NCBI GenBank assembly: GCA_026770705.1
Contig: JANJGN010000053.1
Coordinates: 3,286,001-3,350,000 of the forward strand
From: Isurus oxyrinchus
Taxonomy: Eukaryota
Length of the DNA stretch: 64,000 bases
Reading direction: 5' to 3'
Position numbers and translations under genes: made by a program
Shown: positions 43,063 through 47,232 of the stretch, piece after piece
Layout of the letters: each line of letters begins with the position of its first letter
Numbering within the stretch: the first letter of the stretch is position 1
Notes under the pieces: model-generated
What the model was told of the DNA's origin: nothing
Seen by the model: only the letters and a program-made list of their open reading frames with translations
Database searches by the model: none

Positions 43063-44000
43063 GCAAAAGATGTAACACCTGCCCCTTCACTTCCTCTCTC
43101 CTCACTGTCCAAGGGCCCAAACACTCCTTTCAAGTGAAGCAGCATTTCACTTGCATTTCCCCCAACTTAGTCTACTGCATTCGTTGCTCCCAATGTGGTC
43201 TCCTCTACATTGGAGAGACCAAACGTAAACTGGGCGACCGCTTTGCAGAACACCTGCGGTCTGTCCGCAAGAATGACCCAAACCTCCCTGTCGCTTGCCA
43301 TTTTAACACTCCACCCTGCTCTCTTGCCCACATGTCTGTCCTTGGCTTACTGCATTGTTCCAGTGAAGCCCAACGCAAACTGGAGGAACAACACCTCATC
43401 TTCCGACTAGGCACCTTACAGCCTTCCGGTCTGAACATTGAATTCAATAACTTTAGGTCGTGAGCTCCCTCCCCCATCCCCACACCCTTTCTGTTTCCCC
43501 CTTTTTTCCCCCCTTTTTTTTCCCTATAAATTTTACAGATTTTTCTTTTCCCACTTATTTTTAAATATTTTAAAATCTTTTATGCTCCCCCCACCCCCAC
43601 TAGAGCTGTACCTTGAGTGCCCTACCACCCATTCTTAATTAGCACATTCGTTTAGATAATATCACCAACTTTAACTTTAACACCTATGTGTTCTTTTGTC
43701 CCATTGTCACTGACATCTTTTGATGATCTGCTTCTATCACTGCTTGTTTGTCTACACAAGCACCTCTGTCTCTCTCTCTCTCTCTGCACCACCCCCCCCC
43801 CCCCACACACACACACCTTAAACCAGCTTATATTTCAACTCTTTCCTGGACTCGAAATCAAGTTCTGTCGAAGGGTCATGAAGACTCGAAACGTCAACTC
43901 CTTTCTTCTCCGCCGATGCTGCCAGACCTGCTGAGTTTTTCCAGGTAATTCTGTTTTTGTTTTGGATTTCCAGCATCCGCAGTTCTCTTTGTTTTTATCT
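43063..44000 (+). repeat. 5' pseudo-LTR (5'-truncated upstream copy: GIY-YIG C-terminus plus 3'UTR)
   Basis: Almost identical to 46386-47334; encodes KRCNTCP...LYIGETKRKLGDRFAEH...FNNFRS. Confidence 0.93.
43861..43899 (+). ncRNA. minimal type I hammerhead ribozyme (variant core CUGUCGA)
   Basis: AGTT|CTGTCGA|A|GGGTC-ATGAA-GACTC|GAAA|CGTC|AACT: stem I AGTT/AACT, stem II GGGTC/GACTC, palindromic ACGT stem III, GUC cleavage triplet; located in a PLE pLTR as expected. Confidence 0.75.
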
Positions 44001-44034
44001 CTGTGTTTAATTGACTGCCACTGCTCTTCAAGAA

Positions 44035-46786
44035 ATGCCTACCTCCTTGAAGAAGTTTTGTTCCTCTCTGCGACAAGATTTCCGTATCTCTCTGTTGCCT
44101 TGTTCACCTTCTTTGCTTTCCATTTCCCTCCTAGTGTTTGACAAGGTGTTTACTAAAACCCGCTTTCACAGCCATATCTCCTTTCTCAGTGACTGCCTCC
44201 GTCTCCGACTTACCCCACGTGGATTTCAACTGAAATTCCACCCCTCATCTTTCGAACCCACCCAGGATTACCGGTTTCTCCGGGACATAAAACGTTTCTC
44301 AGACTGCTGTTCCCGTCACATTCTGAAATCCACACTCAGTGCCATGCGCCGCCATATGAACACACTCGACCTCTCCCTCCAGCAGCACCGCCGTACCCTT
44401 TTTCAAAGCTGCGCGTGCCCCCAGTTTCATTTTATCCTTCGGCTGATCCGACGCCTCAACAAGAAACTTTTTCTCTTTCTCTCAACTGCTAAGGAACGCA
44501 AGCTCCAACAACTCATCGACACCAACACCCATCTAGGACCCTCCACCCCAGTCTGTCCCTCCTTCCCCACCCCATCTTTCAATCCCAGCCCCAGCCGTGT
44601 ATTCACTATACCCCCTGACCTTCCCCTCTCCGATGCTGAACGTTCAGTGCTCAGCAAAGGACTTCGTTTCATACCCTTACGCCCTCACCTCAATGAATTT
44701 CGGGCTCGGCATGATACTGAACTCTTCTTTCGCCGTCTTCGTCTCCGGGCTCACTTCTTCGGGCAGGAGTCCTCTCCCAGTTCAACGGATCCTTTTACCC
44801 ATCTCCAATATTCTCCCTCCACCTGGACACCTCCCTCTGGATTCTTACCTTCTCTTGATCTTTTCATTGAGAACTGTCGGCGCGACATTAGTCGTCTCAA
44901 TTTCTCTGCTCCTCTCACCCATTCTAACCTGTCTCTCTCTGAACTTACTGCACTCCATTCTCTCAGGTCCAACCCTGACATTGTCATCAAACTCGCTGAC
45001 AAGGGTGGTGCTGTTGTTGTCTGGCGCACTGACCTCTACCTCGCGGAGGCTGAGCGTCAACTCGCAGACACTTCCTCCTACCTCTCCCTGGACCATGACC
45101 CCACCACTGAACATCAAGCCATTGTTTCCAGGACTGTCACTGACCTCATCTCCTCTGGGAATCTCCCTCCCACAGCTTCCAACCTGATAGTCGCCCAACC
45201 TCGGACGGCCCGCTTCTATCTCCTACCTAAAATCCACAAACAGAACTGCCCCGGTAGACCGATCGTCTCAGCTTGCTCCTGGCCCACAGAACTCATTTCT
45301 CGTTATCTTGACTCCCTTCTCTCTCCCCTTGTCCAGTCCCTTCCCACCTACATCCGTGATTCCTCTGACACCTTACGTCACATCAACAATTTCCAGTTCC
45401 CTGGCTCCAACCGCTTCCTCTTCACCATGGACGTCCAATCCCTCTACACCTCCATCCCCCACCAGGATGGTCTGAGGGCCCTTAGCTTCTTCCTCGAACA
45501 GAGGCCCGAACAATCCCCATCCACCACTACTCTCCTCCGTCTGGCTGAACTTGTTCTCACGTTGAACAATTTCTCCTTCAACTCCTCTCACTTTCTCCAA
45601 ATAAAAGGTGTGGCTATGGGTACCCGCATGGGCCCCAGCTATGCCTGTCTCTTTATGGGATATGTGGAACATTCCTTGTTGCAGTCCTACCCCGGCCCCC
45701 TTCCACAACTTTTTCTCCGGTACATCGATGATTACTTCGGTGCCGCTTCATGCTCTCGTCGGGACTTGGAAAAATTTATTAATTTTGCTTCCAATCTCCA
45801 CCCCTCCATCATTTTCACGTGGTCCATCTCTGACACTTCCCTTCCTTGACCTCTCTGTCTCAATCTCTGGTGATAGACTGTCCACTAATATCCATTACAA
45901 ACCCACCGACTCCCACAGCTACCTCGACTACAGCTCCTCACACCCCGCTTCCTGTAAGGACTCCATCCCATTCTCCCAGTTCCTTCGCCTTCGTCGCATC
46001 TGTTCCGATGATGCTACCTTCAAAAACGGTTCCTCTGACATGTCCTCCTTCTTCCTTAACCGAGGTTTTCCACCCACGGTCGTTGACAGGGCCCTCAACC
46101 GTGTCCGGCCCATCTCCCGCGCATCCGCCCTCACGCCTTCTCCTCCCTCCCAGAAACATGATAGGGTCCCCCTTGTCCTCACTTATCACCCCACCAGCCT
46201 CCGCATTCAAAGGATCATCCTCCGCCATTTCCGCCAACTCCAGCATGATGCCACCACCAAACACATCTTCCCTTCACCCCCCTTATCGGCATTCCGTAGG
46301 GATCGCTCCCTCCGGGACACCCTGGTCCACTCCTCCATCACCCCCTACTCCTCAACCCCCTCCTATGGCACCACCCCATGCCCAGGCAAAAGATGTAACA
46401 CCTGCCCCTTCACTTCCTCTCTCCTCACCGTCCAAGGGCCCAAACACTCCTTTCAAGTGAAGCAGCATTTCACTTGCATTTCCCCCAACTTAGTCTACTG
46501 CATTCGTTGCTCCCAATGTGGTCTCCTCTACATTGGAGAGACCAAACGTAAACTGGGCGACCGCTTTGCAGAACACCTGCGGTCTGTCCGCAAGAATGAC
46601 CCAAACCTCCCTGTCGCTTGCCATTTTAACACTCCACCCTGCTCTCTTGCCCACATGTCTGTCCTTGGCTTACTGCATTGTTCCAGTGAAGCCCAACGCA
46701 AACTGGAGGAACAACACCTCATCTTCCGACTAGGCACCTTACAGCCTTCCGGTCTGAATATTGAATTCAATAACTTTAGGTCGTGA
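44035..46786 (+). CDS. Penelope-like RT + GIY-YIG endonuclease polyprotein with one frameshift near 45845
   Basis: ORF 44011..45849 (ADKGGAVVV, FYLLPKIHK, GRPIVS, MDVQSLYTSIP, GVAMGTRMGP, RYIDD) continues in ORF 45608..46786 (PFLDLSV, YKPTDSHSYLDY.SSHP, NLVYCIRC..C.LLYIGET). Confidence 0.93.
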
Positions 46787-47193
46787 GCTCCCTCCCCCAT
46801 CCCCACCCCCTTTCTGTTTCCCCCTTTTTTTCCCCCTTTTTTTTCCCTATAAATTTTACAGATTTTTCTTTTCCCACTTATTTTTAAATATTTTAAAATC
46901 TTTTATGCTCCCCCCACCCCCACTAGAGCTGTACCTTGAGTGCCCTACCATCCATTCTTAATTAGCACATTCGTTTAGATAATATCACCAACTTTAACTT
47001 TAACACCTATGTGTTCTTTTGTCCCATTGTCACTGACATCTTTTGATGATCTGCTTCTATCACTGCTTGTTTGTCTACACAAGCACCTCTGTCTCTCTCT
47101 CTCTCTCTCAGCACCCCCCCCCCCCCCCCCCCGACCCACCCCCACACACCTTAAACCAGCTTATATTTCAACTCTTTCCTGGACTCGAAATCA

Positions 47194-47232
47194 AGTTCTG
47201 TCGAAGGGTCATGAAGACTCGAAACGTCAACT
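47194..47232 (+). ncRNA. minimal type I hammerhead ribozyme, second copy
   Basis: Identical to 43861-43899. Confidence 0.75.

Follow-up and report, generated by a model that had tools for sequence, protein, structure and literature searches.

A family-wide A6U change in the minimal hammerhead of a Penelope-like element from Isurus oxyrinchus

What becomes of a hammerhead ribozyme when the retroelement that carries it alters a supposedly invariant base of the catalytic core? This question is raised by a Penelope-like element (PLE) in a 64,000-nt stretch of the Isurus oxyrinchus genome (contig JANJGN010000053.1, positions 3,286,001–3,350,000; this whole stretch is the window, and its own numbering is used below), in which two minimal hammerhead motifs carry U instead of A at core position 6 (U6 instead of A6). 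The role of PLE hammerheads is debated, with processing, circle formation and a mere passenger status all under discussion, and a lineage that passed from A6 to U6 bears on this debate: after the core base had changed, the remainder of the fold was retained in two further subfamilies, and the lineage made at least 68,146 copies. We find that the A6U minimal hammerhead is real and runs through the whole lineage of this highly successful PLE family.

A minimal hammerhead with U at core position 6

The two 39-nt motifs (43861–43899 and 47194–47232) are identical, with C17 at 43895 and 47228, 3333 nt apart, as a first-pass annotation of the window had stated. Each contains a stem I of four Watson-Crick pairs (A-U, G-C, U-A and U-A), a stem II of five pairs (G-C, G-U, G-C, U-A and C-G) opened by G10.1-C11.1, a single unpaired A after A9, the sequence GAAA, the palindrome ACGU at 15.1–16.1, and a GUC triplet ending in C17. 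The core bases C3 U4 G5, G8 A9, G12 A13 A14, A15.1-U16.1 and H17 of the minimal hammerhead ribozyme (min-HHR) are all present, as are helix I, helix II with G10.1-C11.1, the unpaired base after A9 and the palindromic 15.2–16.2, whereas the consensus A at position 6 is replaced by U in both window motifs and family-wide. Core, stems, palindrome and pseudo-long-terminal-repeat (pseudo-LTR) setting all fit the minimal PLE hammerhead that had been proposed and, judged by its sequence, the U6 motif is a variant of the min-HHR, not a consensus member. Because both window motifs lie in the repeat of one partial-tandem insertion with a 13-bp target duplication (repeats 43060–43998 and 46383–47331, identical in 929 of 949 columns, 98%), they represent one observation and are not independent. 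An older relative on the minus strand does keep the core CUGAAGA, as had been read (54909–54947); its triplet is GUU and its stem I has decayed.

The motifs are no product of chance. With a generic hammerhead descriptor, 1.2 Mb of unselected genome yielded 31 motifs against none in a shuffled control, and a reversed-pattern control gave no matches in the whole genome. An Rfam scan of the window returned 17 matches at E<=10, none of them a hammerhead, so that neither the U6 nor the A6 motif was detected. Another core numbering was rejected, as the U6 motif aligns base for base with its A6 relative.

U6 is abundant across the 4.98-Gb genome. A variant private to the window copy, which the first-pass annotation had named as fatal to its proposal, is thereby refuted: the 31-nt motif with U6 and C7 has 68,146 exact matches, the same context with A6 has 145, and with C6 or G6 has 1,799. 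G6 would account for ~108 of the latter, extrapolated from 6 of the first 100 of the 1,799 matches listed, indicating that A6 is no commoner in this context than a random transversion. Copies were also drawn from 1.74 Mb of stretches picked irrespective of content, and 186 were retained. Among those covering position 6, T stands there in 53 of 54 that are at least 90% identical to the window unit, in 8/18 at 83–90% and in 4/28 below 83%, where 22 of the 28 carry A. Intact open reading frames (ORFs) of 925 and 926 codons (copies L025, and L021 with L022) are likewise flanked by U6 motifs.

To these counts we add that CTGCTGA (C6U7) accounts for 83 of the first 100 C6/G6 matches listed, against 10 for C6C7, which is more than expected. 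A separate C6 sublineage is disfavoured, since 10 CTGCTGA copies among 12 examined have varied upstream backgrounds; we prefer decay of an older U6U7 pool as the source, with the excess partly unexplained. The public RNA runs compared (8 of 23) consist of contigs, mostly only guessed to be RNA, in which terminal ends are invisible, and the lack of a variant row at 43868 in them is uninformative, as the known genome variants at 43869 and 43882 are missing too.

The descent of U6 was traced in long natural copies grouped by hand into five subfamilies of few copies each, in the succession S1 (A6A7, n=8), S2 (A6U7, n=6), S3 (U6U7, n=31), S4 (n=7) and S5 (U6C7, n=22), the last being the window's own group. 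Mean difference from the column majority is 9.4, 6.0, 3.6, 5.7 and 1.7% from S1 to S5, the S3 value being biased low, with 27 of 31 copies coming from one similarity search, and S4 being mixed. A6U is the sole hammerhead difference between S2 and S3. Five further hammerhead changes separate S3 from S5: position N7, position 17 (U to C), two bases of the loop and one stem II pair that went from A-U to G-U. The core is untouched, and four of the five lie within the 7 free positions of 38 (p=0.002). In a tree of 84 copies, an older group of 17 rows (15 with A6) is separated with 99/99 support, and treating U6 as one clade requires 9 label changes against a shuffled mean of 20.5, a number reached partly because four A6 copies, chosen for A6, fall inside the U6 group. 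On the record of these genomic copies, U6 arose once, between two older subfamilies, and then survived two later ones. It is therefore not the trait of a young family for which it had been taken, as it predates the young family by at least two subfamilies. For this 39-nt RNA, nature provides five dated versions that form a ready panel for comparison.

Copy ends and the behaviour of the U6 hammerhead

We tallied 5' ends for the 84 U6-lineage copies (at least 90% identical to a natural reference) among the 186 retained from 1.74 Mb. Seventeen of the 84 begin in the 8 nt at the start of stem I (43857–43864), compared with 23 in the flanking 76 nt (p=4e-8), and with inverted arms excluded (n=62) there are still 8 against 14 (p=6e-4). 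At the cut site, by comparison, 4 ends in the 7 nt at or after the site stand against 21 in 59 flanking nt (p=0.27), and none of the 84 ends lies within 1 nt of the predicted cut. A pile-up at the edge of stem I with none at the cut site argues that templates were mostly uncut. Similarly, 12 of 23 head-to-head neighbours, hand-picked from the first 100 U6 matches and biased in that each arm must contain the whole motif, lie 15 nt or less apart, where a spacing of 8 nt is expected if both arms start at stem I. In all five subfamilies, most long copies have a TATA-like box at -29 to -32 from stem I, with a variable spacer; in the oldest subfamily the box is TATAAA-like. We infer from the DNA that transcription starts near the edge of stem I (~43861). 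The pile-up suggests a transcript that opens with the 39-nt hammerhead, and an origin of the abundant solo motifs in priming within the 5' repeat.

The 3' ends of copies are bimodal, at ~+100–110 and ~+135–140, the 140 values including copies that run on. In 18 of 26 head-to-head pairs one arm is short-tailed and the other long-tailed, which points to two priming events side by side, and both patterns match the two reverse-transcription starts of the Anolis element (PMC11167929).

Two further kinds of end were observed. Several copies starting at 43862–43863 (e.g. blocks B02, B07, B08 and B11 of L049–L148) have CTG or TG added in front of stem I, letters that long copies lack and that may reflect slippage at the template end or a very short first exon. 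Also, an inverted short arm in the window (54961–55025, plus strand) stands head-to-head against the older element and starts close to the cut site (+35/+36), possibly as a copy from cut RNA of the A6 era.

Any account of catalysis has to accommodate what is observed: the identity of the motif, its anatomy, an old and family-wide U6, U6 on intact ORFs, and copy ends at the edge of stem I. We consider the chances about even that the U6 motif is a slowed ribozyme that rarely cuts, with its fold still under selection, and that probably needs the element's protein or a second copy of itself. Transcription would start near 43861 from the TATA/initiator promoter, yielding an RNA with hammerhead and tail at both ends, and either tail could serve to start reverse transcription. 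From the 5' tail, synthesis would run off the RNA and leave the many 100–140-bp hammerhead-plus-tail insertions and head-to-head pairs, and from the 3' tail it would give long copies. Cutting would strip the capped first 35 nt, so most RNAs would be expected to stay uncut during translation and copying, and the fold would be kept by selection because occasional, gated cutting matters. Published variants offer some precedent: a natural A6C hammerhead is slow yet active and favoured by Mn2+ (PMC3088659, PMC7151607), mutants of the CUGA turn retain little activity (PMC9901934), and the hammerhead of the Anolis PLE requires protein for cleavage, can be dispensed with for insertion in vitro and shows no RNA-seq ends at its site (PMC11167929).

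Several points weigh against a slowed but selected ribozyme. Folding in context predicts the hammerhead stems as minor (stem II probability 0.27–0.28, stem I at most 0.07). The hammerhead has changed at the same rate as the sequence downstream (5/39 vs 7/61 nt), and zero core changes among five is likely by chance, ~1.5 being expected in 12 positions; with an equal rate and so few changes, selection for catalytic function, as distinct from shape, is not demonstrated. The subfamilies are hand-assigned and small (six copies in S2, seven in S4). In a second analysis of ends, the pile-up at the start of stem I was as strong in the A lineage (22/97) as in the U lineage (21/90), so that uncut templates are no peculiarity of U6. 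The predicted start derives from DNA copies, the RNA runs being contigs without ends, and the one Penelope promoter characterised so far, that of Drosophila virilis, is TATA-less (PMC2377424). A need for protein, as for the Anolis motif, would fit both the minority fold and the weak dimer helix: the 4-nt ACGU palindrome would give just -1.7 kcal/mol, in a predicted dimer fold that differs from a hammerhead dimer.

Somewhat unlikely, though a serious alternative, is that U6 killed the ribozyme and that the family spread without cleavage, its shape kept for another job (a downstream promoter element, a 5' leader structure or a protein-binding signal) or persisting only because drift is slow. That no U6-lineage copy (0/84) begins within 1 nt of the cut site agrees with this, as do the CUGA-turn single and double mutants of PMC9901934, which have low activity that second changes do not rescue. 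Ends at +33..+38 also occur in 0/90 U-lineage but 7/97 A-lineage copies (p=0.009, one of the 97 having been hand-added from the window); about half of those seven look like decay artefacts, however, and the resulting contrast of 3 vs 0 is not significant (p=0.14). Against a dead ribozyme, all five later changes obey hammerhead rules with H17 remaining H, the ACGU palindrome survives despite its CpG, and the natural position-6 variant A6C is active.

Rather doubtful, but consistent with the same observations, is a reading in which U6 acts as a governor, the naked RNA being inactive until switched on by a dimer of the element's protein or by Mn2+. With the motif occupying the leading 39 nt of a capped RNA, translation and copying would come first and decapping later. 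If true, the motif would be without precedent as an abundant natural A6U hammerhead, and the succession from A6 to U6 within a single genome would amount to a dated natural experiment on PLE hammerhead function.

We regard as improbable the efficient release of circles, in which U6 hammerheads pair through ACGU, cut, and free a 3333-nt RNA that circularises and templates tandems. The retained palindromic stem III, the exact unit spacing, the existence of partial and triple tandems (three motifs 3353 and 3340 nt apart in L021/L022), the mixed short and long tails of the 18/26 head-to-head pairs and the general proposal of this route for PLEs (PMC4209133) speak for it. However, short copies pass through the cut site to +1, the palindrome is weak and its predicted dimer is not a hammerhead dimer, read-through or a template jump between repeated ends also explains tandems, and even A6 minimal hammerheads cleave poorly as dimers (PMC4209133). 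The unit-length, circularisable RNA first envisaged is thus disfavoured by copies whose 5' ends gather where stem I begins instead of at the cut site; reads across a back-junction cannot test such a circle, because ligation would recreate the sequence already present in the genomic repeat.

Finally, it is very improbable that the 5'-end pile-up marks a 3' splice site (a pyrimidine tract and YAG at stem I) or a reverse-transcriptase stall and not a start: the pyrimidine tract of older subfamilies does end in TAG/CAG at +1/+2, the D. virilis Penelope intron ends at helix I (PMC4209133) and several ends bear extra CTG or TG, but flanks above the ends share no exon sequence beyond 2–3 letters, no GT-AG joint lands at stem I among the 15 of 27 joints listed, the TATA-like box holds promoter spacing, and the youngest subfamily has lost the tract beside AG. 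Splicing from 43945 to 44032 was likewise not found among the joints listed.

The element and its relation to known systems

The hammerheads bracket the ORF as the first-pass annotation had placed them, but the ORF is not whole in the window copy, which lacks 5 nt near 45836 compared with the intact copy L021 (99.0% identical). The latter holds one 926-codon frame with reverse transcriptase (RT) and GIY-YIG endonuclease (EN). RVT_1 scores above cut-off and GIY-YIG below it (E 3e-4 to 9e-4). DKG lies at 330 and YIDD at 570, two cysteines stand between GIY and YIG (VYCIRCSQC..YIG), and a CX4CxxC linker is present in the window copy and L021, with one linker Cys changed in L025. In the account of Craig et al. 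2021 (PMC8557442), a CX2-5CxxC linker between RT and EN defines the Neptune/Nematis type and is absent in Penelope/Poseidon; DKG, YIDD and the linker thus point to the Neptune/Nematis type, and the element is probably Neptune rather than Nematis. The hallmarks of EN+ PLEs are found, namely a partial-tandem pseudo-LTR, inverted 5'-truncated copies, a 30–40-bp tail and a target duplication. The unit encodes RT and endonuclease, and is not the non-coding tandem array that defines a non-LTR retrozyme.

Table 1 Features of the window copy and its older relative
Feature	Position	Strand	Remark
Target-site duplication, left	43049..43061	+	13 bp; final 2 bases also fit element
Upstream copy, 5'-truncated, forming pseudo-LTR (endonuclease-region end, untranslated region, hammerhead, tail)	43060..43998	+	
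TATA-like box	43829..43835	+	32 nt above stem I; putative promoter role
Pile-up site of 5' ends of short and inverted copies	43857..43864	+	Predicted transcription start
5' minimal type I hammerhead	43861..43899	+	U6 at 43868; predicted cut after 43895
Tail between two preferred 3' ends of copies	43960..43998	+	Likely two reverse-transcription starts, by analogy with PMC11167929
RT and GIY-YIG ORF with DKG, YIDD and CX4CxxC linker	44035..46786	+	Frameshifted near 45836
3' repeat (pseudo-LTR) with tail	46383..47334	+	
3' minimal hammerhead	47194..47232	+	U6 at 47201; predicted cut after 47228
Target-site duplication, right	47335..47347	+	
Decayed older relative, 73–81% alike	51995..54947	-	A6 hammerhead at 54909–54947

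Min-HHRs in PLE pseudo-LTRs, their dependence on dimers and the general circle hypothesis were described by Cervera and de la Pena 2014 (PMC4209133). With these metazoan motifs the Isurus oxyrinchus family shares the type I form, the presence in both pseudo-LTRs ~3 kb apart, a short helix I, an unpaired base at 9/10.1, G10.1-C11.1, a palindromic 15.2–16.2, the lack of a loop 3, and a preponderance of solo copies. The consensus core given there is CUGANGAH, with U3-A8 as a reported core variant, whereas U6 is fixed here, so that the descriptor of that study would miss the family; A6 stands in all 44 rows examined of its supplementary alignment, none from a cartilaginous fish. Searches demanding CUGANGA overlook the whole family.

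The Poseidon element PAc of Anolis carolinensis (Frangieh et al. 2024, PMC11167929) resembles the window element in its partial tandems, in a hammerhead at the junction of pseudo-LTR and ORF, in two adjacent 3' ends that delimit a tail, and in uncut RNA as the main substrate. PAc is of the Penelope/Poseidon type and its ORF starts inside the hammerhead; the window element, by contrast, combines a U6 core with the CX4CxxC linker, and its ATG lies 175 nt below stem I. The hammerhead of phage Bcep176 (Perreault 2011, PMC3088659; Naghdi 2020, PMC7151607) is also a natural position-6 change with the other core bases kept. It carries C, not U, is a single phage motif with full stems, and was assayed as slow and Mn2+-favoured, whereas the U6 motif is minimal, has at least 68,146 copies and is a putative ribozyme. 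Non-LTR retrozymes (bioRxiv 10.64898/2026.07.22.740005) likewise have type I hammerhead repeats derived from PLE pseudo-LTRs; they are non-coding tandem arrays, while here the element is coding and the short insertions derived from it are scattered, solo or head-to-head. Our literature search found no natural A6U hammerhead; Lunse et al. 2017, on small PLE hammerhead variants, lay outside that search and may bear on novelty. The available parts of the retrozyme preprint, the review PMC6765202 and PMC11014351 hold no record of U6.

Other features of the window

Upstream of the 5' hammerhead, at 43836–43860, the youngest subfamily has gained short direct repeats of the hammerhead's own 3' strands, whose predicted fold sequesters stems I and II; this would touch only read-through RNA, such as that covering the 3' copy. 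A rearranged hammerhead built from these stem-word repeats was considered and rejected, as no stem III is possible and the repeats are missing in older subfamilies. Two upstream ATGs, at 43878 and 43916, lie out of frame between stem I and the ORF ATG (44035), the first of them within stem/loop II and absent from older subfamilies.

Elsewhere, at ~19000–33000 on the plus strand, the window contains two tandem frameshifted non-LTR retrotransposon copies, ~7.5 kb apart and 81–90% alike, with endonuclease and RT remnants, which we take to be L1/Tx1-like. Additionally, a tRNA-Asp(GTC) gene lies at 16198–16271 on the plus strand, and tRNA-Ile(AAT) genes at 47841–47919 and 59886–59961 on the minus strand. 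The tRNA-Ile genes accompany a duplication spaced by 11.3 kb (49143–51631 vs 60453–62950), which has an inverted relative near 40450–41420.

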